The notes below the pieces were generated by a model. The model was not told where the DNA came from. It searched no databases and saw nothing but the letters and a program-made list of their open reading frames with translations. Both the position numbers and the translations under genes were made by a program. From Promethearchaeota archaeon (GTDB lineage: Archaea > Asgardarchaeota > Lokiarchaeia > Sigyniarchaeales > SOKP01), in the NCBI GenBank assembly GCA_019058365.1, contig JAHPZE010000002.1, positions 128,001-192,000 of the forward strand: a DNA stretch of 64,000 nucleotides, in the 5' to 3' direction. Below are positions 3,542 through 21,265 of this stretch, piece after piece; position 1 is the stretch's first letter, and each line of letters starts with the position of its first letter.

Positions 3542-4699
3542 ATGAACGACGAACCAATTCCAAAGTATCAAATTCGAGAAAAAACACCAATTGAAAAATT
3601 TGATATGATTTCTGATAAAAAATTGCTTAAAAAATTAAAAAAAGAAAGGATCAAGTTAGATAAAGAAAAGAATGAATGGGAAAAAGTTATTAACCAAATT
3701 GAAAATTACAAAGAAAATGTTGAAGATCTTGAGAAAAAAAGAAAAGAAAAAGAACTTAAAATTAAATATCTCCTTGAACAACGAGATAACTTACAGGATG
3801 AGTTAGAACGAACGAAAAATCAAATAAAACAACAGAATAGTGATTTAGCAACAAAAGATCAACAATTTAGAGAAAAAATCAGAAATAAAAATGAGGAATT
3901 GGATCAAAAAAATGCTGAATTAGAAAGATTTCAAGAAAAGTTAGATAATTTGAGAGAGGATATTGGAAATCAAAAAAAGAATCTAGAATGGGAAAAACAA
4001 AGAACAGAAAAACGAATAAAGGAAATTAAAACAAAAATTCCAGGTATGGAGAGAAGAGAAAATGCTTTAGAAAGAACTATTAATGATTTAGAGTCTAAAT
4101 TAATGGATTTAAGAAATGAAATCAAAGATTTAACTAAAGATCGAGATAATTTAAATAATGAAATTAATACTTTAAGGAGAGAAATTAATGATGAAAAAAA
4201 TCGAATTTCTGACGAAAAGAAAAAATTAAAAGAAGAAAGAGAAAAAACTCGTTACAAAAAACAAGATATTTCTCTACAATCTCGTGAAATTGATAAGAAA
4301 AAAACAGATCTGAAAAAATATAGAGATAAAGTTGAAAGTGATGTAAATAATTTGGAAAAAAGAAGACGCCAACAAGAAGCAAGATTAAAAGAATTAGAGA
4401 GAAAAGTTCCTGCTGCAGAAAACAAATATAACTCCTTAAATAGGAAAATTCCTAATTTAGAAGAAAAATTTAGAAGACTAAATAATGAATACAGACAATT
4501 AGAAAAACAAAAAGAGACCTTGGAAAGTGATAAAAATATAATTAAACGTGAAAGAGAAAAATTAGAAAAAGATAAACAACGATTTCTAAATGAAAAAAGG
4601 GCATTTGAAAGAGAAATAAGAAAGATAACAACGAAATCTCCATCAATTAAAACGAAAACACCCTCAAAAATTAATACTAAGACTCCTTCAAAATATTAA
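3542..4699 (+). CDS. Long coiled-coil protein with a Lys/Thr/Pro/Ser repeat tail
   Basis: About 330 aa of E/K/R-rich heptads, no Walker A motif; C-tail TKSPSIKTKTPSKINTKTPSKY. Confidence 0.8.
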   Translation: MNDEPIPKYQIREKTPIEKFDMISDKKLLKKLKKERIKLDKEKNEWEKVINQIENYKENVEDLEKKRKEKELKIKYLLEQRDNLQDELERTKNQIKQQNSDLATKDQQFREKIRNKNEELDQKNAELERFQEKLDNLREDIGNQKKNLEWEKQRTEKRIKEIKTKIPGMERRENALERTINDLESKLMDLRNEIKDLTKDRDNLNNEINTLRREINDEKNRISDEKKKLKEEREKTRYKKQDISLQSREIDKKKTDLKKYRDKVESDVNNLEKRRRQQEARLKELERKVPAAENKYNSLNRKIPNLEEKFRRLNNEYRQLEKQKETLESDKNIIKREREKLEKDKQRFLNEKRAFEREIRKITTKSPSIKTKTPSKINTKTPSKY

Positions 4700-7645: not shown

Positions 7646-8797
7646 ATGAGTGATGATATATTTGATCTAGTTGAATTAGCTAAGTCACGATCATCTGTAA
7701 GAGAAAGGTTCAATGAAATAGCTAAACATAACCAATGTCCTAATTCAAACCCTAATTGTGATGATGACAAATTTTTAGCAGATCTATTAAAAGTTTTGAA
7801 AATTAAAACATACGTGGTTGGTGTAGGAGGCGCTGGAAATAATACAGTTTCACGGTTAGATGATATGGGTATTAGTAATGCTGAGACAGTAAATATAAAT
7901 ACTGATGCGCATGACTTATATTACTCAAATTCAAAGCATAAAATATTAATTGGAAAAGAACGATGTAATGGATTAGGGTCAGGCAATGATCCTTCAGTTG
8001 GAGCTGAAGCAGCAGAGGAAGACCGCGACAGGTTAAATAAAACTTTAAACGCTGATATTATCTTTTTAACTTGTGGATTAGGTGGTGGTACGGGAACTGG
8101 AGCAGCACCCATTATTGCAGCAGAAGCAAAAAAAAATAATGCAATTGTAGTTACATTTTGCTCACTTCCATTTAACTCTGAAGGTAAGCAAAGATCAGTA
8201 AGAGCTCAACTAGGTTTAAAAAATCTTGCTAAATATTCTGATTTCCTAATTCCAATTCCAAATGATAATTTGCTAGGAATTGTCGGAAAAATACCAATGA
8301 TAACAGGCTTTAAGATTATGGATGAAATTCTAATAAGAAATATTGGTGAAGTTGTAAATTTAATTAATAATTGTGGTTTAGTTAACATTGATTTTGCAGA
8401 TGTAAAAAAAACACTTTTAGAAAACCCAAATGGAAAATATCCTTCTGGTTTAGTAGGAATAGCAGAATGCTTAGGCGAAGAATCAGATTTAATAGAAAAA
8501 GCCAGGTTAGCGTTAAATAATCCTCTTTTAAAACCAGACCCGAGACAAGTGAATAGATGTTTAGTATCTGTTACTGGTGATCATAATTTAACATTATCAA
8601 AAGTTGATAAAGTTGTATCAACTATATCAAATGAGATCCCAGAAACCGCTCAATTAAAATTTGGCGTTCAAAACAAGCCTGATATGGGATCAAAAATAAA
8701 AATAATGGTCTTAGCTAATGGGCCTGTTTCACCATATGTACGAGCTGCTGTAGATTCAGATAATGATTTTACACCAACGAGCATTGTTGGCTTTTAA
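7646..8797 (+). CDS. ftsZ: Cell division GTPase FtsZ
   Basis: GVGGAGNN, NTD, GGGTGTG, T7 loop GLVNIDFADV. Confidence 0.96.
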   Translation: MSDDIFDLVELAKSRSSVRERFNEIAKHNQCPNSNPNCDDDKFLADLLKVLKIKTYVVGVGGAGNNTVSRLDDMGISNAETVNINTDAHDLYYSNSKHKILIGKERCNGLGSGNDPSVGAEAAEEDRDRLNKTLNADIIFLTCGLGGGTGTGAAPIIAAEAKKNNAIVVTFCSLPFNSEGKQRSVRAQLGLKNLAKYSDFLIPIPNDNLLGIVGKIPMITGFKIMDEILIRNIGEVVNLINNCGLVNIDFADVKKTLLENPNGKYPSGLVGIAECLGEESDLIEKARLALNNPLLKPDPRQVNRCLVSVTGDHNLTLSKVDKVVSTISNEIPETAQLKFGVQNKPDMGSKIKIMVLANGPVSPYVRAAVDSDNDFTPTSIVGF

Positions 8798-8896: not shown

Positions 8897-9343
8897 ATGA
8901 ATGATAAAAAAATGTCTATAGAAGACCTTAAGAAAGAAATTCGTAACTTTTTAGATAAAAGAAAAGTATTAGTTCTCTGTACTTGTAGCAATAATATTCC
9001 TCGTGCAACTCCAATGGATTTCTACATAGAGAAAGACAGTTTTAATATTTATGTAGGACCCGCTCCTGGAAGGAAAGTTAAGAATATGGAAGAAAATCCA
9101 ATTATTAGTATTGGTATATATACTCCTATGTCTGAAGGAAAAATACAAGGTATGCAAATTACAGCTACAGGTAAAGAAAGGTTGATATTTCTAAAAGAAG
9201 GAGATGAAGAATTCAAAAAAGCTCAAAAAATTGTACGAGGAAAAAGAAAACTAATTCTAAAAATAATACCTGAAAAAATTGAACTACTTGATTATGATTT
9301 TATCAAAAAAGGATATGGACGCCTTCAAACATTAGAAATATAA
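8897..9343 (+). CDS. Pyridoxamine 5'-phosphate oxidase-like (split-barrel flavin-binding) protein
   Basis: LCT...PRATP, RKVKNMEENP.ISIGI pattern. Confidence 0.75.
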   Translation: MNDKKMSIEDLKKEIRNFLDKRKVLVLCTCSNNIPRATPMDFYIEKDSFNIYVGPAPGRKVKNMEENPIISIGIYTPMSEGKIQGMQITATGKERLIFLKEGDEEFKKAQKIVRGKRKLILKIIPEKIELLDYDFIKKGYGRLQTLEI

Positions 9344-9363
9344 AAAAAAAATAATTTTAAATT

Positions 9364-9663
9364 TTATTCTTGCATTAATTTTATGGCTTCAGATCCTTCC
9401 ATTAAAGTGATTATTTTATAAAAATATCCCTCAAATTTAGTAAAAGCACTGAGACGTTTGGCTATTCCTTTCATCCCTGCATATAGTTTATCTTCAGGAA
9501 TTTCATATATATTATAAGTTTTAATATAATAATCTGATATTATCCATTGGTGTGTTCTCTTTACGAAATCAGGGTATTTTGGTGCTTTTCCTGAAAGATA
9601 AAACTTTAACATATCCTCTACAATATGAGGTGGATATTTAACTTTACTCATGACATAAACCAT
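9364..9663 (-). CDS. Small hypothetical protein
   Basis: Open frame; start moved to the ATG at 9663, which follows a GGTGA site. Confidence 0.6.
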   Translation of the reverse strand: MVYVMSKVKYPPHIVEDMLKFYLSGKAPKYPDFVKRTHQWIISDYYIKTYNIYEIPEDKLYAGMKGIAKRLSAFTKFEGYFYKIITLMEGSEAIKLMQE

Positions 9664-9868
9664 TTGGTGATTCACCTTTCTAACAATTTTGATTAATTAA
9701 TCTTGGATTTGTAAAATCAAATATATTGAATTATTATTAAAATTTTTATATTTTTAGAAAAATTCAAAAATAGGAAATAATAATCTTCTAAAAGTAAATG
9801 TTTTAGGAGAAAATAAATTCTTTCATTTAATACAAATAAAAATTCTTGAAAATTTCCAACTGATAAAT

Positions 9869-12835
9869 ATGATTTCTGAGGAAGAACAAGAGGATCTTAA
9901 GACAACACAATCTGATAAAGACTTAAAAAGAGTTTTTAAAATAATTTCCTCGAGAAATCCTGATGCTTATTTTCCTACTAAGGAGCTAAGAAAATTAGGA
10001 TATATGAGAAAAAAGTGTGAATGTTGTGGCACACATTTTTGGACTACAATTAAAGATAGAGAAGTATGTGGAGATCCTGTATGTTCTGGAGGTTTTCAAG
10101 TAGTCATAGATAATCCTTCCAAAGTTAAATTATCTTTTATTGGAGTTTGGGAAAAAATTGTTGAGATCTTAGAACCAAGAGGATATGTCCCAATTAAAAG
10201 ATATCCTTGTGTAGCTCGATGGAATCCGACTTCTGAATTTACAATCGCATCAATATCAGCGTTTCAACCGTATGTTATTACAGGAGAAGTAGAGCCCCCT
10301 GCCAAGAAGCTGTTAATCCCTCAATTTTGTTTAAGATTCAATGATATTGAAAATGTTGGAATAACGGGCTCTCATAACACTGGTTTTGTTATGATAGGGC
10401 AGCATACTTTTGTGCCACCTGAAGAATGGAATCAGGGGGAACTTTTTATGGATATACATGATTTTATTCATGAAGGTGTTGGTCTGCCAAAGGAAGAAAT
10501 AATAATTCATGAAGATTCATGGGCAGGTGGGGGCTCATTTGGGTGTAGCCTTGAGTTCTTCAGTAGAGGAGTAGAGCTATTTAATCAAGTTTATACTATG
10601 TTTGAACAAACTCCTCAGGGACCACGTGAACTTAAACTTAAAGTTCTTGATATGGGACTTGGTCAAGACCGTGTAGCATGGTTCTCTCAAGGTACTCCTA
10701 ACATGTATGAAGCCATTTTTCCATTTGTTTTATCAAAATTAAGAGAAATCACTAAAATTGAGTTAGATTTAGTATTATATAATCAGTTTTCACGATTTTC
10801 AGCTTATCTAAATGTGGATGAAGTAGATAATATTGATGATGCTTGGAATAGTGTTGCAAAAGAATTGAATATTGGTGTAAAGGAACTCAGAAATAAAATA
10901 ATGCCTATGACTGCTCTTTACTCAATAGCTGAACATGCTCGTAGCTTGCTTTTTGCTATAAATGATGGAAAGCTTCCTTCAAATGTTGGTGGAGGATATA
11001 ATTTAAGGGTAATATTTAGACGAGCTATTAGTTTTATAGATAAATTCAATTGGGATATTGATATAGCAGATGTGTGTATATGGCATGCTGATGAATTAAA
11101 AAGTATTTTTCCTGAAGTTTCAGAACATTTGGATGAAATTCGAGAAATATTAGATGTCGAAAGGGAGAAATTTTATGCAACTAAGCAAAAAGCTGGAAAA
11201 ATTTTAGAAAAATTGCTGAAAAAAGGAGAGATATCCACTGACACTCTAATAGAATTATATGATTCTAATGGTATAAGTCCAGACATGGTAAAAACGGCAG
11301 CTAAAAAATATGGTATAAAAGTACACATTCCAGATGATTTTTATAATTTAGTGGTAGAAAGACATGAAATAACTGAGCAGGTCCATGCAACCGGAAAACA
11401 AATTGAATTAAATTTAGAAGGAATTCCTGAAACAAAATCTCTTTATTATTATGACTATACCGAGACTTATAATGAAGCGAAAGTGTTAAAAATCATTGAT
11501 AAAATGGTTGTTTTGGATAAAACAATTGCATACCCTACTTCTGGAGGACAACTTCATGATATAGGTACAATAAATGGGCAAAAATTCTCTGATGCTTTTA
11601 AACAAGGGAACTATACGATTCATGTTTTAGATGAAAAACCTACTTTTAAGGAGGGAGATATCGTTAAAGTTGAAGTTGATAAGAATTGGCGTACTCAACT
11701 CTCCCAACATCACACTGCTACTCACATTCTAAATGCTGCGGCAAGAGACATTTTAGGAAGCCATGTAAATCAAGCTGGTGCTAAAAAAGCATTTAAAAGC
11801 TCTCATTTGGATATAACCCACTATGAACAAATTCCAAGAGAAAAACTTCTTGTAATTGAAAATAAAGCAAATCAGATAGTTGAAGAAGGAATAGATCTTA
11901 ATCTCAGTTTCATCCCTCGTGCTGAAGCAGAACAAAAATATGGAATGACGATTTATCAAGGAGGTGCAGTACCGGGAAAATATTTAAGAATTGTTGAGAT
12001 ACCTGGGGTTGATGTTGAAGCTTGTGGGGGCACACATCTAAATAATACTTCAGAAACAGGTTATATCCATATTATTAAATCACAAAAGATACAGGATGGA
12101 ATAGTCAGGCTTACTTTTGTAGCTGGAGAGGCTACAAATAAATTAAAAGAAAAACATAAAAGAATTCTTAATGAATTAAAAGATATGTTAAATGTTGATC
12201 GCAAGCAACTTGTTGGACGTGTAAAAGAAATAATTGAAAAGTGGAAAAATGTAAATAAAGCATTAAAAACTGGTAATGTAGATGAGAGGGATTTACAATT
12301 AATCTCCTCTGAAACGTTTGAAGGTGATGTATTATCAGAAATTTCTCAAGTTTTAAGCATTAAAAAAGATGATATATCAAATAAAATTCAAAAATTATAC
12401 AATGAATGGAAAGAAGGAAAACAAAAGTTAATTGCAATCAAGGACCTGTTTAGCGATGAGGCAATTGAAAAACGGATAGAAAATGCTCATTTGTATCACA
12501 ATGCTAAGTTAATTTTTGAATCTACAGAAGATTTAACTCAAAATGATATAAAAAATTTAAGTCAAAACATTTTAAAGAAAGATCCTAATACAATTACATT
12601 TATATCAAATCAAAGTGAAAAAGGTATAATGCTTATGGGTATGTCAGGGAGTAAATCATCAATGGAATCAGATATTAATGTCGGTAATATTGTATCAGCA
12701 ATAAAAAAGCACTACAATGGAAAAGGTGGAGGAAAAAACGATTTTGGCCAAGTCTTAATAACAAAAAAAGGAGTTACTTCAGCAGAAGTTTTACAATATA
12801 TAAAAGATAATTATATCAAAGGTAAAGATAAATAA
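9869..12835 (+). CDS. alaS: Alanyl-tRNA synthetase (archaeal type)
   Basis: FTIASISAFQP, CLRFND, LDMGLG, editing-domain HTATH and CGGTH, C-terminal DHHA1 GGG. Confidence 0.97.
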   Translation: MISEEEQEDLKTTQSDKDLKRVFKIISSRNPDAYFPTKELRKLGYMRKKCECCGTHFWTTIKDREVCGDPVCSGGFQVVIDNPSKVKLSFIGVWEKIVEILEPRGYVPIKRYPCVARWNPTSEFTIASISAFQPYVITGEVEPPAKKLLIPQFCLRFNDIENVGITGSHNTGFVMIGQHTFVPPEEWNQGELFMDIHDFIHEGVGLPKEEIIIHEDSWAGGGSFGCSLEFFSRGVELFNQVYTMFEQTPQGPRELKLKVLDMGLGQDRVAWFSQGTPNMYEAIFPFVLSKLREITKIELDLVLYNQFSRFSAYLNVDEVDNIDDAWNSVAKELNIGVKELRNKIMPMTALYSIAEHARSLLFAINDGKLPSNVGGGYNLRVIFRRAISFIDKFNWDIDIADVCIWHADELKSIFPEVSEHLDEIREILDVEREKFYATKQKAGKILEKLLKKGEISTDTLIELYDSNGISPDMVKTAAKKYGIKVHIPDDFYNLVVERHEITEQVHATGKQIELNLEGIPETKSLYYYDYTETYNEAKVLKIIDKMVVLDKTIAYPTSGGQLHDIGTINGQKFSDAFKQGNYTIHVLDEKPTFKEGDIVKVEVDKNWRTQLSQHHTATHILNAAARDILGSHVNQAGAKKAFKSSHLDITHYEQIPREKLLVIENKANQIVEEGIDLNLSFIPRAEAEQKYGMTIYQGGAVPGKYLRIVEIPGVDVEACGGTHLNNTSETGYIHIIKSQKIQDGIVRLTFVAGEATNKLKEKHKRILNELKDMLNVDRKQLVGRVKEIIEKWKNVNKALKTGNVDERDLQLISSETFEGDVLSEISQVLSIKKDDISNKIQKLYNEWKEGKQKLIAIKDLFSDEAIEKRIENAHLYHNAKLIFESTEDLTQNDIKNLSQNILKKDPNTITFISNQSEKGIMLMGMSGSKSSMESDINVGNIVSAIKKHYNGKGGGKNDFGQVLITKKGVTSAEVLQYIKDNYIKGKDK

Positions 12836-12997
12836 ATAACAGACCTTTTGATTTAAGATTTAAAAACAATAAGCTCTACTTTTTAGTTTTATACTAAAGA
12901 TATAAATAATTAATGAATAAAATACTACTATTATAATATTAGAAGTTTAATCTTAATTTCAAAATAAGATCTATAACTCTACAGATTTGAGAGAAAT

Positions 12998-15964
12998 ATG
13001 ATGAATGAATTAGAAATTGATAAAGAGCTTGAAAATTTCAAAGATCAGTTAAATTTACTGGCAATGATATTTGATACTCGCAGAAAAATGCGTAGAGAGA
13101 TATATAATGAAAAAACCGGTTTCATTTTTAACGCCAAGTATCAATTTACAACTAAAGATGATGCATTTAATGTTCACGTGATTTTTAAAGATGGAAAGAT
13201 GACTGTGGCAGATGGAAAAATTGATGATCCTAATATCACTATTTATTATAAGGATAAAGAGACTTTGGCAAATCTCTATAGCAAGAGTGCTGAAGAATCA
13301 CTTGATTATCTTTTAACAAACGAGATGGGATATATTGGAAACATGTCTTACCTTACCAAGTTTTCTTATCTCACATCGCTCGTTATGGGAGCTAAGATCA
13401 AGGATTATAAAGGTCCTGAAAACCGAATATTATATCCAATTGAGAATATTGATAATGGAGAAAAGAGTAGAAGGCTTAAGAATGAAGGTTTGAATCGAAA
13501 GGTTGATAAAGTTGAGGTATTAGAAGATCCTTATCTAGCAAAATATTCTTTGGAGGATTTTCCACGTTTAAAATATTTAAAAAACCGTCGTTTTGCCTTA
13601 AAACCGGCAATATGCGTTGAAAGGGCTAGATTAGTAACACAATATCATAGGGAAAATGGGTTCGAGGAAGATAGTTCTGGAAATCCACTAGATCCAGAAT
13701 TACGACAAGCAGGAGCAGTAAATTACATAATGTCTAATAAAAGACCTATAATTCATGATAGACATCTAATTGCTGGGTCTACTACATCAAAAGAAGTTGG
13801 GATCCCTATGTATCCTGAACTTATTGCGACAGCTATTTGGCCTGAACTAAAAACAATTGGTGAACGGGAGCTAAATCCTAATGATATTTCCGACAAAGAT
13901 GCAGATATTTTAAGTTTAGAAGTTTTTCCTTATTGGATGGAACGGAATGTGCGAGAATACTGTCGTACAAAATTCAATAATCCCAAATCTCAAGCATTAG
14001 AAGAAGGATGGGTATTTTATTTTATGATGAAAACCAATGCTATCAGCCATACAATCCCGGGTTTTCCAATGGTTATAAACAAAGGATTAGAAAGTGTAAA
14101 ACATAAAGCTGAAAAATTAGAAAAAGAAGCTGATTCAAAAGAGAAAAAAAATTTCTATAAGGCAATTCAAATAGCAATAGATGGTGTTTTAACATATTCT
14201 AAAAATCTGAGTGAAGAAGCAATAAGAATTGCTGAATCTTTGGATCCAAATGAACCAGAACAAGCAAAAAGAATTGATGAATTAAAGGAGATTTCCAGAA
14301 TTTGTGCGAAAGTACCAGGAAAACCAGCAGAAACGCTTCAAGAAGCAATTCAATCTATTTGGACGAGTTTTGTTTGCTTACATTGTGAAAATGCTAATTC
14401 TGCATTATCAATTGGTAGATTAGATCAAATACTCCAGCCATTCTTTTTAAAAGAGATTGTGAAGGCTAAAAATGACGATGAAAAAGAACAAATAATAAGA
14501 AAGGCAATTGAGTTAGTCGGATCCTTGTTTGTTAGAATTAATGATCATGATCCACTAATGCCAAATGTGGGGTGGAAACTTTTCGGAGGCAGTTCTTCAG
14601 ATGATACAGTGACAGTCGGAGGTGTTGATAGAGAAGGAAATAACGCTGTGAATGATATGAGCTATATTATTTTAAAGACAAATGAGATGCTTGGTTTCCA
14701 AGATCCTAATATGAATGCTCGATATTATTCTGGAATTAATTCAAAGGAATATTTACGTCGTTTGACTGAAGTAAATGTGAACATGGGGGCATCTCCAAGC
14801 ATTCATAATGATAGAACTATGATTGAAGCCTTAGTTCACGAAGGTTTTGTTATAGAAGATGCTAGAGACTGGGGTGCAACTGGATGTGTTGAGCCTACAA
14901 TTGTAGGAAAACATTATGGTCATACAAATTGCATGCTTTTGAATCTGGTGGCTCCCTTAGAAATGGCATTAAATAACGGAATTATTCCATTGACCGGAGA
15001 AAAAATGGGGATTGAAACTGGTTATGTTCGGACTAATTTTATAACATTTGAAGATTTTTTAGATGCCTATAAAATTCAACTTAAATATTTAGCAGAACAA
15101 TCAATTGAAATTAATAATTTTCTCGGGGAATCACATAGAGATATACATCCAACACCTCTTTTATCGTGTTTTTACGATGGTCCTTTAGAAAAAGGTAAGG
15201 ATCTCATTAATGGCGGTGCTGTTTATAATACATCGGGAGTTGCTCTTGTGGCACTTACGGATGTGATTGATAGTTTATTGGTTATTAAGGATTTAATCTA
15301 CAATAAAAGTGAATTTAATTTTGCTACACTAATGGATGCTATTGATAATAACTTTGAAGGTTACGAATCCATCTTGCATAAAATAGAACAAGTTCCCAAG
15401 TTTGGTTCAGGTGAAGATGGTACCATTGAAATGGCTCAAGATATAATTAATTTTTGTTATGATATCTACAATTCTGCTAGAAATTATAGGGGTGGTAAAT
15501 ATCTAGTGGGTTACTGGTCGATAAGTTATCATACTGGATTTGGAATGCTCACTGGAGCTTTACCCTCAGGTCGAAAGAAAGGAAAGGCATTGACTCCCGG
15601 ATTAACTCCCGCATCTGGTACCACTGATATCTTACTTCCAAGCATTCAAAGTGTTGCAGCTTTAGACTACTTAAAAATGGCAAATAATGCTTCTTATAAT
15701 GTGAAACTTGTTCCCCATCCGGGTGATAACCATAAAGAAACACTAGATCTTTTCACGAGCTATGTCCAGAGCTTTTTTGATCTAAATGGAATGCAATGGC
15801 AATTTAATGTTATATCTTCGGATACAATGAGAGATGCGATGGCTAATCCGATTGATTATAGATGGCTCCTAGTTAGAGTCTCAGGATATAATGCCTACTT
15901 CACAAAACTAAATAAAAATATGCAATTAGAATTAATTGAAAGGCATGAATATCATACAAGATAG
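12998..15964 (+). CDS. Glycyl radical enzyme (eliminase-type GCVE) with an N-terminal SCP2-like lipid-binding domain
   Basis: Gly loop LVRVSGYNAYF, Cys loop ATGCVEP, SIGRLDQ; extra N-terminal ~130 aa (YQFTT...VIFKDGKMTVADGKIDDPNITI...LLTNEMGYIGNMSYLTKF) has the SCP2 pattern. Confidence 0.9.
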   Translation: MMNELEIDKELENFKDQLNLLAMIFDTRRKMRREIYNEKTGFIFNAKYQFTTKDDAFNVHVIFKDGKMTVADGKIDDPNITIYYKDKETLANLYSKSAEESLDYLLTNEMGYIGNMSYLTKFSYLTSLVMGAKIKDYKGPENRILYPIENIDNGEKSRRLKNEGLNRKVDKVEVLEDPYLAKYSLEDFPRLKYLKNRRFALKPAICVERARLVTQYHRENGFEEDSSGNPLDPELRQAGAVNYIMSNKRPIIHDRHLIAGSTTSKEVGIPMYPELIATAIWPELKTIGERELNPNDISDKDADILSLEVFPYWMERNVREYCRTKFNNPKSQALEEGWVFYFMMKTNAISHTIPGFPMVINKGLESVKHKAEKLEKEADSKEKKNFYKAIQIAIDGVLTYSKNLSEEAIRIAESLDPNEPEQAKRIDELKEISRICAKVPGKPAETLQEAIQSIWTSFVCLHCENANSALSIGRLDQILQPFFLKEIVKAKNDDEKEQIIRKAIELVGSLFVRINDHDPLMPNVGWKLFGGSSSDDTVTVGGVDREGNNAVNDMSYIILKTNEMLGFQDPNMNARYYSGINSKEYLRRLTEVNVNMGASPSIHNDRTMIEALVHEGFVIEDARDWGATGCVEPTIVGKHYGHTNCMLLNLVAPLEMALNNGIIPLTGEKMGIETGYVRTNFITFEDFLDAYKIQLKYLAEQSIEINNFLGESHRDIHPTPLLSCFYDGPLEKGKDLINGGAVYNTSGVALVALTDVIDSLLVIKDLIYNKSEFNFATLMDAIDNNFEGYESILHKIEQVPKFGSGEDGTIEMAQDIINFCYDIYNSARNYRGGKYLVGYWSISYHTGFGMLTGALPSGRKKGKALTPGLTPASGTTDILLPSIQSVAALDYLKMANNASYNVKLVPHPGDNHKETLDLFTSYVQSFFDLNGMQWQFNVISSDTMRDAMANPIDYRWLLVRVSGYNAYFTKLNKNMQLELIERHEYHTR

Positions 15965-16009
15965 CAAAGATACTTTATTTTTATTTTTTAATTTTTATTT
16001 TTTGAAATA

Positions 16010-16909
16010 ATGACAGAAAAAACACTTATAGTAGACATTAAAAGAAATGCCCTAGATGATGGTCCAGGAATAAGAACTCTTATCTTTTTTAAAGGTTGTC
16101 CGCTTTCTTGCGTTTGGTGTCAAAATCCAGAAGCAAAATCTCCTTTTTTAGAGCTCTATTTTGATGATGAATTGTGTGTTGAATGTCGTAAATGTTTAGA
16201 AGCATGTGCTCAAAATGCGATTAAATTTGATTATAAGTATCGTATTGACCGAAGCATATGTAACCTATGTGGATGTTGTATAGATCTATGTCCTAATAAT
16301 GCTTTAAAATTTGTAGGAAAAATTTATACAATTAAAGAATTAATGAATATTATTTTAAAAGATAAAATATTTTATGATAATTCTGGTGGAGGAGTCACCC
16401 TTTCTGGAGGAGAACCTCTGTCTCATATTGATTTTGTTCATAATTTACTCAAAGAACTTAAAAAAGAAGAGATCCATATATGTATTGAGACATGTGGGTT
16501 TTATAATAAAAATAAATTTAATGAGCTGATAGAACCTTATGTTGATTTAATTTATTTTGATTTAAAAATTTCAGATCCTAATCTCCACGCTCAATATTGC
16601 AAAGTTTCTAATGAGCGAATTTTGGAAAATTTTGAAATTTTAATTAATAAACAATATATAGAAGTTCTACCAAGAATCCCCCTTATTCCTGATATAACAG
16701 ATACATCAGAAAATTTAAATAAGTTAGCCCGTTATTTAAAAACTCTGCATATAAAGAGAATAGGGTTTGTACCATATAATCCATTATGGATATCCAAACC
16801 TGAAAAAATTGGTATCATGCCTTTATACTATCATTCTGAATGGATTTCTAATAAGAAAAAAGAGCAAATTAAATCATTTTTTTCAGATTTTGATTATAAT
16901 GATTTTTAA
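16010..16909 (+). CDS. Glycyl-radical activating enzyme (radical SAM with 2x[4Fe-4S] insert)
   Basis: DGPGIRT..FFKGCPLSCVWCQNPE, two CxxCxxCxxxC motifs, GGVTLSGGEP. Confidence 0.95.
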   Translation: MTEKTLIVDIKRNALDDGPGIRTLIFFKGCPLSCVWCQNPEAKSPFLELYFDDELCVECRKCLEACAQNAIKFDYKYRIDRSICNLCGCCIDLCPNNALKFVGKIYTIKELMNIILKDKIFYDNSGGGVTLSGGEPLSHIDFVHNLLKELKKEEIHICIETCGFYNKNKFNELIEPYVDLIYFDLKISDPNLHAQYCKVSNERILENFEILINKQYIEVLPRIPLIPDITDTSENLNKLARYLKTLHIKRIGFVPYNPLWISKPEKIGIMPLYYHSEWISNKKKEQIKSFFSDFDYNDF

Positions 16910-17018
16910 ATCTTAAAAATAAATGAAGTAGTTTCATTATCAAGTATTATAAACTATTTAATATGATTAAATCTAATAGAATTATTAGCAGATTTTTAAT
17001 TATAAGGATGAATTAACT

Positions 17019-18821
17019 ATGGGAAAAATATTAAGAATTGATTTAGAATCTAAAAACTTCTTTACAGAAATTATTGAACCTGAATTAGAAGAAAAATATA
17101 TTGGAGGGTCTGGAGTAGCCGCAGCAATCTTTATCAAAGAAGTTCCCCCCGATATTGACCCTTTTGATGCTCAAAATCTCCTTATCTTCTCTTTAGGACC
17201 AATTTGTGGAACTCCAATACCATATTGTGGTAGACATTTTATTATGGCAAAATCCCCGTTAACTAGGATTTTAGGTGAATCTTCTGCTGGCGGCTATTTT
17301 GGAAATGAACTAAAGAAAGCAGGTTATGATCATATTATCATTAAGGGAATAAGTGAGACTCCTGTCTATTTATGGATTCATAATGATAATGTTGAAATTC
17401 GAGACGCTACAAAATTATGGGGAAAAGGAACTCGAGAAACAGAAGATTTATTGAAGAAAGACATTGGTGACGAAAAAGTAATAGTGACTTCAATAGGACC
17501 AGCAGGAGAAAACCTTGTTAAATTCGCTTCAATAATGAGTGAAAAAGGTCATGCTGCGGGACGTTGTGGCATGGGTGCAGTAATGGGCAGCAAGAATTTA
17601 AAGGCAATAGTTGTACGTGGTACTAAAGATGTACCAATCAATAATAAAGATAAATTAATGGAGGTGGCACAAAAAATAAGAACAATAGCAAAAACAACAC
17701 CTTTTTCTGTAGTTATGCATGATGTAGGTACTCTTGCACATATGGATAATTACGTTAGTGCGGGAGATGTACCGATTAAGAATTTCACACTAAGTCGATG
17801 GAAAGGAACAAAAAAAATTGGATTTTATTCACTAAAAGACAACTATGAAATACAACATTATTCTTGTTTCAATTGTTGGACTGCTTGTAGAGGAAAAATT
17901 AAGTATAATAATGAATGGGTGGTATGGCCTGAATATGAATTCTTGGGAATGTTAGGTTCTAATCTATATGTGGATGATTTAGAAGCTTTAATTAGATGGA
18001 ACATTATGGTTAATGATTTAGGGATGGATTGTATTTCTCTTGGTGGAGTTCTTGGAGTTTTTCTAGAAGCGGTAGAGCGAAAATTAATTGAAATTGACTA
18101 TAATGGTCTAGGGTTTGAAAAAGATCCAGAAAAGAATCACTATACTATTTGGGGTGCCACTTCAGCAATTGAAAATTTAATCGAGTTAATTGCATTTCGA
18201 AAAGAAATTGGGAACGATTTGGCTGATGGTGTTCGGATATTTTGTCAAAATAATAATTTACCAGATGATCTTAATATACAAGGAAAAGGTCTTGAAGTAC
18301 CTGCTCATGAACCTCGTTCGAACAATATAACAGCATTAGATCTCGCCACATCTTCTCGTGGGGCATACCATGGTTATGAACCCTTTCACTTATCATTTTC
18401 TACACATTTTAAAAAGGAATTAGGACTTACTGAAAGAATTGATGCATTTTCTGGAGGTGAGGAAGTTATAACTGCAGTCAAAAAAATACAAGATGCTTGC
18501 GAATCATATACAGCAACAGGAGGATGTATGTTTGGTTTTTTTTATTCTAGTGAGATTAGTCCTTGGGTAGATGCTGTTAACGCTATTACAGGTAGATCCT
18601 ATACAGTTGAAGATTGGGTAAGAATTGGTGAAAATCTATTTAATTCAAAAAGAAAATATAATATAAAATGTGGGATTGCTAAGAAGGATGATTCAATTGG
18701 AACAAGATTTTCAAATCCTATCCCTAAAGGAGGAACTAAAGGCAATATACCGCCTCTTAAAGAAATGCTGGAGAAATACTATAATCTAAGAAGTTGGGAT
18801 TCAGAAGGAAACCCCTCATAG
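17019..18821 (+). CDS. aor: Aldehyde:ferredoxin oxidoreductase family (W-pterin)
   Basis: AKSPLT...ESSAGG, IGPAGEN, AAGR.GMGAVMGSKNLKA, CFNC..AC, PEYE, GMD.IS, KGLE.PAHEPR. Confidence 0.93.
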   Translation: MGKILRIDLESKNFFTEIIEPELEEKYIGGSGVAAAIFIKEVPPDIDPFDAQNLLIFSLGPICGTPIPYCGRHFIMAKSPLTRILGESSAGGYFGNELKKAGYDHIIIKGISETPVYLWIHNDNVEIRDATKLWGKGTRETEDLLKKDIGDEKVIVTSIGPAGENLVKFASIMSEKGHAAGRCGMGAVMGSKNLKAIVVRGTKDVPINNKDKLMEVAQKIRTIAKTTPFSVVMHDVGTLAHMDNYVSAGDVPIKNFTLSRWKGTKKIGFYSLKDNYEIQHYSCFNCWTACRGKIKYNNEWVVWPEYEFLGMLGSNLYVDDLEALIRWNIMVNDLGMDCISLGGVLGVFLEAVERKLIEIDYNGLGFEKDPEKNHYTIWGATSAIENLIELIAFRKEIGNDLADGVRIFCQNNNLPDDLNIQGKGLEVPAHEPRSNNITALDLATSSRGAYHGYEPFHLSFSTHFKKELGLTERIDAFSGGEEVITAVKKIQDACESYTATGGCMFGFFYSSEISPWVDAVNAITGRSYTVEDWVRIGENLFNSKRKYNIKCGIAKKDDSIGTRFSNPIPKGGTKGNIPPLKEMLEKYYNLRSWDSEGNPS

Positions 18822-19026
18822 AAGAGGAAAATACTAGTATTAACTTTATTTTTAAAAATTTTTTTGCATTCTAAATATTTACTCTGAAAAATTATCATAT
18901 TTAATATTTTGAACTATTTCGATTTTCTATATAGACTATATAGACTCTATATAATATGATAAGAAAGCTTAAAACTCTAAAATTTTTTATTATAATAAAG
19001 AAAAATGGAGAAACTATATATTAAAA

Positions 19027-19197
19027 ATGTTTAATCGATATCTCTTAACCTTACTAAATCAAAAGAATGAATATATCAAATTAAAAAAAGGAGTTTCACA
19101 AACACCTCTCGAAAAATCTATTGATGACATAATTGAAAAAATTACGCAAGATATCGATAAAATAACAAAATTAAATCAAATTGATTGTATATATTAA
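19027..19197 (+). CDS. Possible 56-aa small protein
   Basis: Manual ORF MFNRYLLTLLNQKNEYIKLKKGVSQTPLEKSIDDIIEKITQDIDKITKLNQIDCIY, amphipathic, immediately upstream of the next small ORF. Confidence 0.35.
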   Translation: MFNRYLLTLLNQKNEYIKLKKGVSQTPLEKSIDDIIEKITQDIDKITKLNQIDCIY

Positions 19198-19222
19198 AAT
19201 TACAAATTTAGGAGAAAAAATT

Positions 19223-19405
19223 ATGAAACCTATTTTTAGAGAGTTTTGCTGTCCACAATGTGGAGAATTACGGCATATAAAAGTTAATGGCATTTGTTTT
19301 GATTGTAATAATGAAAACACTCTTAATTCATTCGCAGAACAGCGTAAATTACAGCAAAAGCTCGCTATGAAAAATCATTCTCTCACTGTAGAGAGTTATA
19401 ACTAA
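19223..19405 (+). CDS. Small zinc-ribbon protein
   Basis: ATG at 19223 after GGAG; CPQC...CFDC. Confidence 0.6.
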   Translation: MKPIFREFCCPQCGELRHIKVNGICFDCNNENTLNSFAEQRKLQQKLAMKNHSLTVESYN

Positions 19406-19569
19406 AATTATTTTAGTTTTTATTTAACTTGAATTTTTACAATCGAATCTTTTTTATTTAAGATTTTTATCTCATCAAAAATATTTTAAATTTAGTACTA
19501 ATTAATAAATTTATAAATTATAGAAATTCTCTCTTAGAAATTAATTTCATTATGAAGAGATGCTGAAAA

Positions 19570-20391
19570 TTGGTAGAAATTATACAAATTAGCGATTTAC
19601 ATTACGGAAGTGAATTCAGAGAAGATTGTTTTGAAAATATTATTAGTTATATTAAAGAAACTCACCCTGATTTAGTTGTCTGCACTGGAGATCTGGTGCA
19701 TAGGGGAAGAATAAATGAATTTAAAAATATAGTTCAATATATAAATAGAATAAAGGATATAACTAGGTTTATGGCGGTACCAGGTAATCATGATGTTAAA
19801 AGTTCAGGTCTCGTATTTTTTGAGAAAATTATTGGACCAAGAAGATCTAGATTGATTTTAGAAGAAAAAAATGCCCTGATAGTAGGTATCTGTTCCGCTA
19901 GAGATGATTTGGCCGAGGGTAGAATCGGGGATGAGCAATTGGATTGGTTAGGCCGCCAATTTAACCGGAATTTAGAAGATCGAGTAATAGCATTACATCA
20001 CCATTTAATTCCAATTCCAATGTCTGGACAAAAATTTACAACAGTCCGAGATGCGGGAGAAATTTTAGAGTTTACTAATTTATTTGAAATAGATCTAGTA
20101 TTAATGGGCCATCGCCATGTTCCTCATGCTTATACCATTTCTTGGAAGAATTCATCAAGTACAACTTTTCTTTACAGTGGTACTTCAACTTCAAATAAAA
20201 TCCGTGCTAATGATGCCCCTAGCTTTAATCATATTTTTCTTAGTGAAGGTAATTTAGAAGTTTATATAGTTAATTCGGTAAATCTTAAGAAGAATTTATT
20301 ACTGGAAAGAAAGGAACATCATACTGAATTTATTAGACCACGAAAAACTAGAATCGAACATTTACTTGCATCAGAAGTATGGGATGAATAA
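19570..20391 (+). CDS. Metallophosphoesterase (CpdA/Icc-like)
   Basis: SDLH, TGD, GNHD, LHHH, GHRH. Confidence 0.9.
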   Translation: MVEIIQISDLHYGSEFREDCFENIISYIKETHPDLVVCTGDLVHRGRINEFKNIVQYINRIKDITRFMAVPGNHDVKSSGLVFFEKIIGPRRSRLILEEKNALIVGICSARDDLAEGRIGDEQLDWLGRQFNRNLEDRVIALHHHLIPIPMSGQKFTTVRDAGEILEFTNLFEIDLVLMGHRHVPHAYTISWKNSSSTTFLYSGTSTSNKIRANDAPSFNHIFLSEGNLEVYIVNSVNLKKNLLLERKEHHTEFIRPRKTRIEHLLASEVWDE

Positions 20392-20420
20392 AAAGAATTC
20401 TATAAAGCAGGTGTAAATAT

Positions 20421-20849
20421 ATGCCTAAACCAATTACACCGTTATTAACGGTTGATGCTGTAATTTTAATAAATAACAAAAAGGATATTATCTTAATCCG
20501 GCGAAAAAATCCTCCTTTTCAAGGGCAATTTGCATTACCTGGAGGATTTGTTGATATAGGCGAAACCGTTGAAAATGCTTGTATTCGTGAAGTAAAAGAG
20601 GAAACAAATATTAGTGTGAAAATTATAAAACTTATTGGAGTTTTCTCCGATCCAGACAGAGATCCAAGAAGACATACTATCACTGTAGCCTTTCTTTGCG
20701 AACCATTAACAAAAAAGGAAAAACCAAAAGCTTTAGATGATGCTGCTGCCCTAGAAGTTGTACCTTTATCAAATCTTTCTTCATTAAAATTAGCTTTTGA
20801 TCATATGGAGATTGTTAAGAGTTCAGGGATATTAGATAACATAGATTAA
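20421..20849 (+). CDS. NUDIX hydrolase (ADP-ribose pyrophosphatase-like)
   Basis: PGGFVDIGETVENACIREVKEET Nudix box; RDPR, LAFDH. Confidence 0.92.
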   Translation: MPKPITPLLTVDAVILINNKKDIILIRRKNPPFQGQFALPGGFVDIGETVENACIREVKEETNISVKIIKLIGVFSDPDRDPRRHTITVAFLCEPLTKKEKPKALDDAAALEVVPLSNLSSLKLAFDHMEIVKSSGILDNID

Positions 20850-20857
20850 TTGGATTA

Positions 20858-21265
20858 TCATTTTTCCTTTATTTCATAGAGATTTTGAAAAGAATCTTTA
20901 ATAAAAAGATAATATCCAACACCATCTTTCCTTGGAACTTTCACGATATCATATCCTAATGAACTTGCTCTATTAATAAAATCATCTCTATTTTCTATTA
21001 ATAAGCATGAATGAGTAAAAGTGTCCTGTGCTTTACTTTCATCATCAGTAATAAAAACCTCAAAACTTAGAGAATCTTTTTCATATCGTATAATTTTTTG
21101 TTCTTTACTTACACCAAAGAATTTTTCCATCAAATCAGCTGAGACTGTGAATGATCTTGTTCTTTTTAACCCCAATAATTCAATAAAAAAATCATCTGAA
21201 TTGCTTTCGTTATTTGCGGCAATAGCTATATGCTCTAAGTTTTTCTCACCCATATTCATTAACAC
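20858..21265 (-). CDS. VOC/glyoxalase family protein
   Basis: HIAI...FF..LLGL, HSCL, FIKDSFQNLYEI. Confidence 0.75.
   Translation of the reverse strand: MLMNMGEKNLEHIAIAANNESNSDDFFIELLGLKRTRSFTVSADLMEKFFGVSKEQKIIRYEKDSLSFEVFITDDESKAQDTFTHSCLLIENRDDFINRASSLGYDIVKVPRKDGVGYYLFIKDSFQNLYEIKEK

Follow-up and report, generated by a model that had tools for sequence, protein, structure and literature searches.

An Asgard archaeal glycyl radical enzyme fused to an SCP2-fold domain: a candidate radical eliminase for lipid-like substrates

Three consecutive genes, all on the forward strand, form a unit in a Loki-type Asgard archaeon: a glycyl radical enzyme (GRE, P0001) with an extra N-terminal domain, its radical-SAM activase and an enzyme of the aldehyde:ferredoxin oxidoreductase (AOR) family (Table 1). 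The window analysed, whose numbering is used below, is the 64,000 nts at positions 128,001-192,000 (forward strand) of contig JAHPZE010000002.1, assembly GCA_019058365.1. The order of the genes, and the gaps of 45 nts between GRE and activase and 109 nts between activase and AOR, agree exactly with those given in a preliminary description of this sequence. The ORF 5′ of the GRE (9869-12835) likewise specifies 988 aa; by Pfam it is an unrelated alanyl-tRNA synthetase. An Rfam scan of window positions 9000-21000 gave no match, and the 749-nt gap 3′ of the AOR gene contains short ORFs only.

Table 1. Genes, domains and active-site motifs of the GRE-activase-AOR unit (positions in the 64,000-nt window)
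Feature	Position	Strand	Basis or remarks
SCP2-fused glycyl radical enzyme (GRE, P0001)	12998-15964	+	ORF, 988 aa; Pfam PFL-like and Gly_radical
N-terminal SCP2-fold domain, residues 1-131	12998-13390	+	AF2, Foldseek, VIA-align, Pfam SCP2 matches of relatives
Linker, residues 132-189, with LEDPYL motif	13391-13564	+	Invariant D170, V172, L175, D177, P178, Y179, L180
His351 codon (column of glycerol dehydratase His164)	14048-14050	+	Aligned to 1r8w, 5i2a, 6vxc
GGSSSDDT strand, residues 530-537	14585-14608	+	Aligned to GDH Tyr339 / HypD Ser-Thr strand
Cys loop G629-C630-V631-E632	14882-14893	+	Conserved; aligned with catalytic Cys/Glu of dehydratases
Glycyl radical motif R960-V-S-G963-Y964	15875-15889	+	Conserved across family
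GRE activating enzyme, radical SAM with ferredoxin-like insert	16010-16909	+	299 aa; Pfam Radical_SAM and Fer4
AOR family enzyme	17019-18821	+	600 aa; Pfam AFOR_N and AFOR_C

The proposal that the N-terminal region (about nts 13055-13390) is an SCP2 domain was made originally from its sequence pattern. By sequence the match is weak, with Pfam SCP2 (PF02036) giving E 0.019 and 15.8 bits against a cut-off of 21.3, and a profile built from 61 relatives of the domain found nothing significant among PDB sequences (AF1534 at E 0.67 only). At the level of the fold, however, it is confirmed. In the AF2 model of the domain, which has five helices and five strands, most of residues 1-130 exceed pLDDT 90. 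The top 35 Foldseek matches of this model at E <= 0.001 are all of SCP2 type (best E 9e-6), and include UbiJ-SCP2, AF1534, the C-domain of an alkylsulfatase, the SCP2L of MFE-2 and SCP2. VIA-align, which is independent of Foldseek, places nine SCP2 chains at Z 9.2-11.3 and a tenth at 6.8, with the first non-SCP2 entry at 5.8. Further, 15 of the 61 sequence relatives themselves match Pfam SCP2 (best E 7e-5), some above its cut-off. Since direct sequence and profile searches are sub-threshold, the assignment rests on the fold and on these transitive Pfam matches; as modelled, residues 1-130 are a genuine SCP2 fold.

Residues 161-190, in the linker, have low confidence in the model of the isolated domain, but pLDDT 88-94 in the full-length AF2 model (pLDDT 83, pTM 0.88 overall), which suggests packing of the linker against the GRE body. 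Pairing of the domain with GREs is recurrent: several subfamilies have it fused, and it also occurs as a separate gene. One Loki genome has the parts apart, as an 806-aa GRE, a 351-aa protein with an SCP2-like C-terminus and then the activase. Other relatives of the domain occur in fusion with a FadH-like dienoyl-CoA reductase, or are encoded beside an enoyl-CoA hydratase (ECH). Elsewhere in the host genome SCP2-like ORFs gave weak matches on C3 and C44, neither beside a GRE. Hydrophobic ligands are common to SCP2 domains of solved structure (UbiJ, the alkylsulfatase SdsA1 with dodecanol, and MFE-2, judging by structure titles). In SdsA1 (2cfu/2cfz), UbiJ (6h6p) and the SCP2L of MFE-2 (1ikt) the fold also accompanies a catalytic unit for long hydrophobic chains. 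The partners there are, however, a metallo-beta-lactamase-type sulfatase, the Ubi hydroxylase/methyltransferase set and beta-oxidation enzymes, with no radical enzyme among them, and identity to the present domain is 6-18% only. No description of the fusion was found in literature on GREs with SCP2, sterol carrier or ether lipids.

The rest of the protein has the features of the GRE superfamily: a Cys loop in a PFL-like barrel (PF02901, residues 191-849, E 2.6e-160), a Gly_radical domain (PF01228, residues 866-969, E 6.6e-22) with the RVxG motif, and a dedicated radical-SAM activase. Its conserved catalytic set is Gly963, Cys630-Val-Glu632 and His351. Cys630 lies at the position of the catalytic Cys in 1r8w, 6vxc and 5i2a, and the Glu two residues after it, together with His351 at the column of His164 of glycerol dehydratase (GDH), matches the pattern of the 1,2-eliminases (GDH, PDH, HypD, CutC, IslA/HpsG), which have His or Asp at that column. 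His351, which is kept in at least 90% of family members, is not discriminating because all six GRE paralogues of the host genome have His there. The GGSSSDDT strand, by prediction part of the active-site lining, hardly varies within the orthologue clade (a single Ser-to-Thr change) and differs in distant SCP2-GRE subfamilies. Rich in Ser and Asp and very polar, it would suit a small hydrophilic substrate too. The active-site loops of the full-length model have pLDDT <50 at residues 528-534 and 958-972. Both the single-Cys Gly-Cys-Val-Glu loop and the strand had been singled out in the preliminary description, and both prove to be conserved across homologues; the eliminase-type residues, Cys-x-Glu and His, are retained.

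It had also suggested a GRE class for which it could name no substrate, and by the scores the enzyme does not group with HypD, CutC, PFL or any other characterised GRE. P0001 falls beneath every NCBIfam GRE cut-off (HypD 438.7 against 1100, CutC 421.7 against 1050, HpsG 371.9 against 1000, PFL2-3 subfamily TIGR01774 536.3 against 678.2). HypD, CutC, HpsG/HpfG, IAD and HPAD identities are ruled out by such scores, and pyruvate formate-lyase by the lack of a Cys-Cys pair, the loop being Gly-Cys-Val-Glu, and by 125.8 bits to TIGR01255 against a cut-off of 994. On sequence criteria, then, the family lies outside all characterised GRE classes, yet it is widespread. The closest solved relative, Archaeoglobus fulgidus PFL2/PflD (2f3o, E 2e-116 over residues 202-982 of P0001), has the same barrel, a single Cys and a Cys-x-Glu loop. 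It differs in being 776 aa long without an SCP2 domain, in keeping Asp at the column of GDH Asp447 (Asn644 in P0001) and in having SGQATNQ where P0001 has GGSSSDD; its own substrate is likewise not established. Glycerol dehydratase (1r8w) and propanediol dehydratase (5i2a) share with P0001 the catalytic Gly, Cys, Glu (Cys+2) and His164-column His, an activase with ferredoxin-like clusters and an aldehyde as expected product. In the alignment, however, the glycerol-binding His281/Ser282 of GDH become Ser468/Ala469 in P0001, Tyr339 becomes Ser532 and Asp447 becomes Asn644; P0001 is below the TIGR01774 cut-off, and it carries the extra 190 residues of SCP2 domain and linker. The small residues in place of GDH's bulky ones are consistent with a larger pocket.

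The small substrates used by the closest solved relatives, the polar character of the active-site strand and the occurrence of SCP2-like domains without a proven lipid role (in Eis acetyltransferases, for example) would suit a small-molecule dehydratase or lyase, of glycerol/diol type or for another polar metabolite, with the SCP2 fold as a structural, oligomerisation or membrane-tethering module. We think this unlikely, while granting it a real chance, for all small-substrate equivalog cut-offs are missed, the substrate-binding residues of GDH are not conserved, the SCP2 domain is repeatedly with GREs, whether fused or separate, and acyl-CoA enzymes recur as neighbours (see below).

A 2021 paper on Hermodarchaeota assigned such Asgard GREs to the alkyl/benzylsuccinate synthases on the basis of 29-33% identity to AssA/BssA and a single Cys (PMC8163825). 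The enzyme would then add fumarate in anaerobic hydrocarbon activation, with the SCP2 domain delivering the alkane. Besides the published label, the presence of the family in the hydrocarbon-degrading genus Desulfatibacillum accords with this, as do neighbouring acyl-CoA dehydrogenase (ACAD) and ECH genes, which recall a bbs-type beta-oxidation set. The X-succinate synthases (AssA/MasD, 9o8u; BSS, 4pkc) do resemble the present family in GRE fold and in occurring in Desulfatibacillum, and act on hydrophobic substrates. Their Cys-Met-Ser loop and their Arg for fumarate binding are, however, absent from P0001, as are their small subunits from its locus, where no beta/gamma subunit ORFs lie between or flank the three genes. 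The same Desulfatibacillum genomes also hold true AssA genes. The AssA/MasD orthologue of D. alkenivorans (L130:878-3394; 1478 bits to 9o8u) has the Cys-Met-Ser loop and an Arg at Cys+15, whereas P0001, 25% identical to it, has Cys-Val-Glu and, at the Arg column, Cys645. X-succinate synthase structures are matched at E 1.9e-49 and 5.7e-56, against 2e-116 for the best solved relative. On the comparison with true AssA (loop, Arg column and identity) a fumarate-adding identity is rejected, and we regard it as highly improbable.

Asgard archaea have the family, and so do Desulfobacterota and other bacteria, with 51-68% identity across the first 300 residues. Among Asgard archaea of Lokiarchaeia type it is common: matches at E <= 1e-10, weaker GRE-only ones included, came from 26 of the 201 Asgard genomes sampled. 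In a quick tree the Asgard orthologues are nested in a bacterial, Desulfobacterota-dominated grade. Gene neighbourhoods were compared at 81 loci, for which single-linkage grouping at 75% identity merged most of the main clade, so that the counts given here are per locus or named taxon and not of independent events.

The activase (TIGR02494, 290.7 bits against a cut-off of 174; CxxxCxxC at residues 30-37) adjoins the GRE in 50 of these loci. The AOR, with Pfam matches to AFOR_N (E 1e-81) and AFOR_C (1.2e-81) and a CxxCxxxC 4Fe-4S motif in its translation, has P. furiosus AOR as its nearest solved structure (1aor, E 1e-113) and scores below both NCBIfam equivalog cut-offs; by sequence its metal may be tungsten or molybdenum. 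With 16 AOR and 7 GRE paralogues in the host genome some chance adjacency is to be expected and, because many orthologue loci also lack an AOR, adjacency in this window alone is weak evidence for a link. Orthologues of this AOR at 55-98% identity nevertheless adjoin the GRE in other Asgard genomes, against at most 40% identity for the paralogues in the host genome (no higher than 37% when matched over full length). In 24 of the 81 loci an AOR-family gene is found no more than 5 kb from the GRE; AORs, non-orthologous ones included, count as neighbours in 25. Three bacterial loci carry non-orthologous AORs, and as these are only 29-35% identical to the archaeal one, bacterial and archaeal AORs were recruited independently. 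Given the 24 loci and the non-orthologous bacterial AORs, the connection of AOR to GRE that had been proposed from this locus is more than local synteny.

Besides AORs, the neighbours across the 81 loci include ECHs, ACADs and acyl-CoA synthetases, with MaoC and SDR genes also among them. At 15 loci, of Asgard, Desulfobacterales, Desulfosudaceae, Pseudomonadota and Dehalococcoidia, an ECH gene is next to the GRE or close by, in genomes with a background of only 13-29 ECH genes per 2.9-5.9 Mb. A FadE-like ACAD is directly upstream of the GRE in four main-clade loci (ACAD within 5 kb in 5 of the 81), and at locus L076 an AMP-binding acyl-CoA synthetase faces GRE-activase-AOR. A CrtI-like isoprenoid-type oxidoreductase pair is beside the GRE in 20 Loki loci. 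The context is variable: the orthologue in cultured Desulfatibacillum stands alone, and AOR and ECH are both missing from many loci.

Such neighbours (ECH, ACAD, MaoC, SDR and acyl-CoA synthetase), and the FadH-like reductase fused to SCP2 relatives, could alternatively mean that the SCP2 domain binds an acyl-CoA or fatty-acyl thioester (compare MFE-2 and SCPx) for radical dehydration or rearrangement in a beta-oxidation-like route, with the AOR only loosely coupled. The independent recurrence of AORs in archaea and bacteria, however, suggests that the aldehyde is free, some loci have no CoA enzyme besides ECH, and we know of no GRE with a CoA thioester as radical substrate; we hold this to be distinctly unlikely.

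The reading that we favour, giving it about an even chance, is that the GRE is a radical 1,2-eliminase whose target is the hydroxylated head of a lipid-like substrate, and that the AOR oxidises the resulting aldehyde. The activase would set the radical on Gly963, from which it would move to Cys630. The substrate would be hydrophobic, with its tail held or delivered by the fused SCP2 domain, a putative carrier, and at its polar end the Cys630 thiyl would take hydrogen from a carbon that bears a hydroxyl. With Glu632 and His351 as base and acid, a neighbouring O-linked group (water, alkoxy or similar) would leave to give an aldehyde, which the AOR would convert to the acid with reduction of ferredoxin. 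In other lineages the acid may be processed further by the GRE-adjacent acyl-CoA synthetase, ECH and ACAD, neighbours that fit a route from aldehyde via acid to acyl-CoA. The preliminary description had likewise interpreted the unit as radical elimination on a lipophilic substrate (for example a glyceryl ether, long-chain diol or lipid head group) with the aldehyde captured by AOR. Of this the SCP2 domain, the non-membership in known GRE groups, the eliminase residues and the AOR link have stood; that the reaction is an elimination, that its substrate is lipid-like and that an aldehyde results are inferred.

A more specific version, in which the unit is the entry to O2-independent degradation of glycerol ether lipids (alkylglycerols, or archaeol-type lipids after head-group removal), is something of a long shot. 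The GRE would dehydrate a free diol, or eliminate an alkoxy group beside a free hydroxyl, to yield a 3-alkoxypropanal; the AOR would convert this to the 3-alkoxypropionate for CoA activation, and ECH, with or without ACAD, would free the fatty or isoprenoid alcohol via beta-elimination or hemiacetal collapse. Such a route is in keeping with the neighbouring AOR, synthetase, ECH and ACAD genes and with the CrtI-like pair of the 20 Loki loci. Long-chain 1,2-diols, sphingoid bases, phosphatidylglycerol heads and hopanepolyols would also fit these data.

To our knowledge, all characterised GREs use small soluble substrates or, in the case of the fumarate-adding enzymes, a hydrocarbon. With a lipid-carrier fold built into a conserved clade of GREs, radical elimination chemistry would extend to lipid-like substrates. 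The unit points to an unstudied O2-free cleavage of a greasy molecule at its polar end, and would be a candidate for the little-known processes by which ether lipids, long-chain diols and the like are broken down anaerobically in sediments. The published reading of such Asgard GREs as alkyl/benzylsuccinate synthases is corrected here. The occurrence of orthologues in cultured Desulfatibacillum species (D. aliphaticivorans DSM 15576 and D. alkenivorans DSM 16219) makes the question open to experiment, and the nesting of the Asgard enzymes in a bacterial grade bears on the acquisition of lipid-related metabolism by relatives of eukaryotes.

The SCP2-fused glycyl radical enzyme (GRE) P0001 lies within four co-directional ORFs (9869-18821), in a window of ~29% G+C whose genes have their nearest homologues in Promethearchaeota (Lokiarchaeia) MAGs. 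The preliminary description had read an SCP2-fused GRE followed by an activase and a member of the aldehyde:ferredoxin oxidoreductase (AOR) family, and overall this holds for the ORFs, gaps, motifs and fold. The intergenic distances are indeed 45 nt (GRE to activase) and 109 nt (activase to AOR), and its GCVE and GGSSSDDT motifs are at residues 629-632 and 530-537, with RVSGY at 960-964. Judged from sequence and modelling, P0001 is an uncharacterised variant of the eliminase type of GRE with a lipid-carrier fold; its context is one of recurrent aldehyde and acyl-CoA processing genes. [A small zinc-ribbon-like ORF lies in the 749 nt that separate the AOR and metallophosphoesterase genes, and genes for a coiled-coil and an FtsZ/tubulin-family protein are upstream of the alanyl-tRNA synthetase gene.]

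Features at the P0001 locus and elsewhere (G000, genome of the window, with C numbers its contigs; L numbers, compared loci; unprefixed positions are in the window)
Feature	Position	Strand	Remarks
Coiled-coil protein	3542-4699	+	385 aa; ERM, tropomyosin, APG6 matches sub-threshold
FtsZ/tubulin family	7646-8797	+	
Alanyl-tRNA synthetase	9869-12835	+	988 aa, same length as GRE by coincidence
GRE (P0001)	12998-15964	+	988 aa; Pfam PFL-like residues 191-849, Gly_radical 866-969
Activase	16010-16909	+	299 aa; Pfam Radical_SAM and ferredoxin-type cluster domains
AOR	17019-18821	+	600 aa; Pfam AFOR_N and AFOR_C
Zinc-ribbon-like ORF	19181-19405	+	74 aa; two CxxC pairs
Six other GRE paralogues (L008-L013)	G000 C35, C21, C16, C14, C8, C34		~790-860 aa, without SCP2
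Second AOR-GRE pair	G000:C8:23362-25167; G000:C8:26455-28491	+; -	~1.3 kb apart
CrtI/carotenoid-isomerase-like FAD oxidoreductase and PaaE/FNR-like 2Fe-2S reductase	L016:3031-5828	-	522 aa and 410 aa
Split arrangement	L113:617-5107	-	806-aa GRE without N-domain, 351-aa ORF, activase
FadH-like protein	L114:3862-6237	+	791 aa; Oxidored_FMN, Pyr_redox_2, C-terminal SCP2 (Pfam E 2.5e-8)
DUF1848 protein, examples	L043:19342-20208; L087:13663-14652	-; +	

By themselves, GRE residues 1-190 match Pfam SCP2 below threshold (E 0.019). Searched exhaustively with phmmer, 1.8 billion representatives yielded 139 relatives of this domain, many of them stand-alone proteins of ~150 aa, and 15 of 61 relatives match Pfam SCP2 independently. 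In an AlphaFold model made with an alignment of the phmmer relatives, residues 1-130 have pLDDT mostly >90, with five helices and five strands. All 35 Foldseek matches to the PDB at E <= 0.001 are SCP2-type domains (UbiJ-SCP2, AF1534, the alkylsulfatase C-terminal domain, MFE-2 SCP2L, and mammalian, insect and yeast SCP2), and in the VIA search, which does not depend on Foldseek, nine SCP2 chains reach Z 9.2-11.3, followed by a tenth at 6.8 and the first non-SCP2 entry at 5.8. Since the top matches of both searches are all SCP2, the fold proposed for the N-terminal domain is confirmed. Residues 161-190, with their invariant LEDPYL motif, are disordered in the isolated-domain model and have pLDDT 88-94 in the full-length one (pLDDT 83, pTM 0.88 for the whole); because confidence appears only in the latter, we take this to mean that the linker packs against the GRE body. 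One Loki genome has a split form, in which a gene of its own, placed between an N-domain-less GRE and the activase, encodes the SCP2-like module (the C-terminal part of the product is SCP2-like, with no Pfam match). Elsewhere in Asgard genomes, relatives of the domain occur in fusion with a FadH-like dienoyl-CoA reductase or adjoin an enoyl-CoA hydratase (ECH). [At L115 a tandem pair of small SCP2 genes accompanies TetR and ECH genes.]

The nearest solved sequences to P0001 all belong to the PFL2/eliminase group: A. fulgidus PFL2 (2f3o, E 2e-116), HypD, propanediol dehydratase, glycerol dehydratase (GDH) and CutC. Much greater distances separate P0001 from true PFL (E 6e-25) and from the fumarate-adding enzymes (E 1.9e-49 and 5.7e-56). 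All NCBIfam models score P0001 far under their cut-offs, even the generic PFL2-3 subfamily (536 vs 678), so it falls in no characterised GRE class and, as had been supposed, is distinct from the known small-substrate enzymes. Residue-level alignment retains the GDH catalytic columns as Cys630, Glu632 and His351 (GDH His164), whereas the glycerol-binding His281/Ser282 align with Ser468/Ala469, Tyr339 with Ser532 and Asp447 with Asn644; on this alignment, glycerol-binding residues are swapped for small ones. An alternative, that P0001 is a small-substrate eliminase whose SCP2 domain is not a carrier, we consider unlikely. Active-site segments, including FGGSSSDDTVTVGG and TGCVEPT...GHTN, are essentially invariant in the orthologue clade (61-94% identity); distant SCP2-fused subfamilies have other strands. 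One distant member, P0199 (985 aa), has GGAMQP for TGCVEP and VGISGY for RVSGY and so lacks both catalytic residues, Cys and Glu; it is perhaps a paralogue without activity. The SCP2 module is thus carried by several active-site variants.

Asgard GREs of this kind were named Ass/Bss in 2021 from ~30% identity and a single Cys (PMC8163825). Desulfatibacillum alkenivorans has a genuine AssA/MasD orthologue (1478 bits to the AssA/MasD structure 9o8u), with which P0001 shares 25% identity. AssA has a Cys-Met-Ser loop and an Arg 15 residues past the Cys, whereas P0001 has Cys-Val-Glu and Cys645 at the Arg column, and no small-subunit ORFs flank its gene. On these grounds the label is unsupported for the SCP2-fused family, and fumarate addition by its members is highly improbable.

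Full-length homologues with the SCP2 domain occur in Promethearchaeota, in MAGs labelled Jord-, Frey- and Hermodarchaeota, and, with 51-68% of the first 300 residues identical, in bacteria (Desulfobacterales, Desulfosudaceae, Desulfatibacillum, Bacteriovoracaceae and others). A second subfamily, in Dehalococcoidia, Chloroflexia and some Asgard genomes, has ~36-40% identity over that stretch and 45-50% over full length, where measured. The first 300 residues are matched (E <= 1e-10) in 26 of 201 sampled Asgard genomes, weaker matches covering the GRE part only being included. By FastTree (a fast tree only, rooted on long-branched paralogues), Asgard orthologues form one clade, sister to a Desulfobacterales group; its nesting among bacterial sequences suggests transfer from bacteria to Asgard archaea. 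The window's genome has 16 AOR-family matches and seven GRE paralogues, P0001 alone bearing SCP2. [One paralogue is on the window's contig, ~17 kb upstream of the window; another, at L009, has HypD-like active-site strings. Desulfatibacillum genomes (L132, L118-L129) have 10-11 GRE paralogues, true AssA genes among them; two or three are SCP2-fused, 62-63% and 42-44% identical to P0001.]

Among the clustered ORFs of 81 GRE loci, the activase adjoins the GRE in 50 and an AOR-family gene is within 5 kb in 24. Asgard GRE-linked AORs are orthologous to that of the window (55-98% identity), which is <=40% identical to its paralogues in the same genome (<=37% for full-length matches). Where an AOR adjoins the GRE in Desulfobacterales (two loci) and Bacteriovoracaceae (one locus), its identity to the window's AOR is just 29-35%, so different AOR lineages were recruited independently; the pairing is not exclusive to the SCP2-fused enzyme, since the genome has a second AOR-GRE pair. 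ECH lies next to or near the GRE in 15 of the 81 loci (Asgard, Desulfobacterales, Desulfosudaceae, Pseudomonadota, Dehalococcoidia); with only 13-29 ECH genes per 2.9-5.9 Mb in those genomes, chance adjacency would be a few percent. Five loci have an acyl-CoA dehydrogenase (ACAD) gene no more than 5 kb away, in four main-clade loci a FadE-like one immediately precedes the GRE, and an acyl-CoA synthetase is opposite GRE-activase-AOR in L076 and found in three further loci. Beside such neighbours, an acyl-CoA as the GRE substrate itself is conceivable, though unlikely. The GRE neighbourhoods of Desulfomonilia and Bacteriovoracaceae also contain MaoC, SDR and TetR genes. Counting against these associations, many of the 81 loci have none of the AOR, ECH, ACAD or acyl-CoA synthetase types, and the orthologue in cultured Desulfatibacillum stands without related genes nearby. 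The CrtI-like and PaaE/FNR-like pair, divergent beside the GRE in 20 loci of one Loki genus, counts as one observation because the lineage is single. [L041 and L058 have a second such pair on the opposite side of GRE-activase-AOR; L097, which begins inside the GRE, shows the downstream copy only. A DUF1848 protein is near the GRE in 11 loci, from Loki genomes and one Desulfosudaceae.]

Radical elimination on a lipophilic substrate with the aldehyde passing to AOR, as first interpreted, is partly supported. The observations fit a reading, to which we give an even chance, in which the dehydratase-type Cys/Glu/His set would carry out 1,2-elimination at a hydroxylated carbon of a substrate whose hydrophobic tail would be handled by the SCP2 domain. 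The aldehyde so formed would be oxidised to an acid by AOR and processed further by acyl-CoA synthetase, ECH and ACAD. That the enzyme begins an anaerobic ether-lipid route is a doubtful extension, drawn purely from chemical logic and gene context: the GRE would yield a 3-alkoxypropanal and AOR a 3-alkoxypropionate, with CoA activation and then release of the alcohol by an ECH-type step. The sole known alkylglycerol ether-cleaving enzyme requires O2 (PMC7911779, PMC3617469), so such a route, if true, would fill a real gap.
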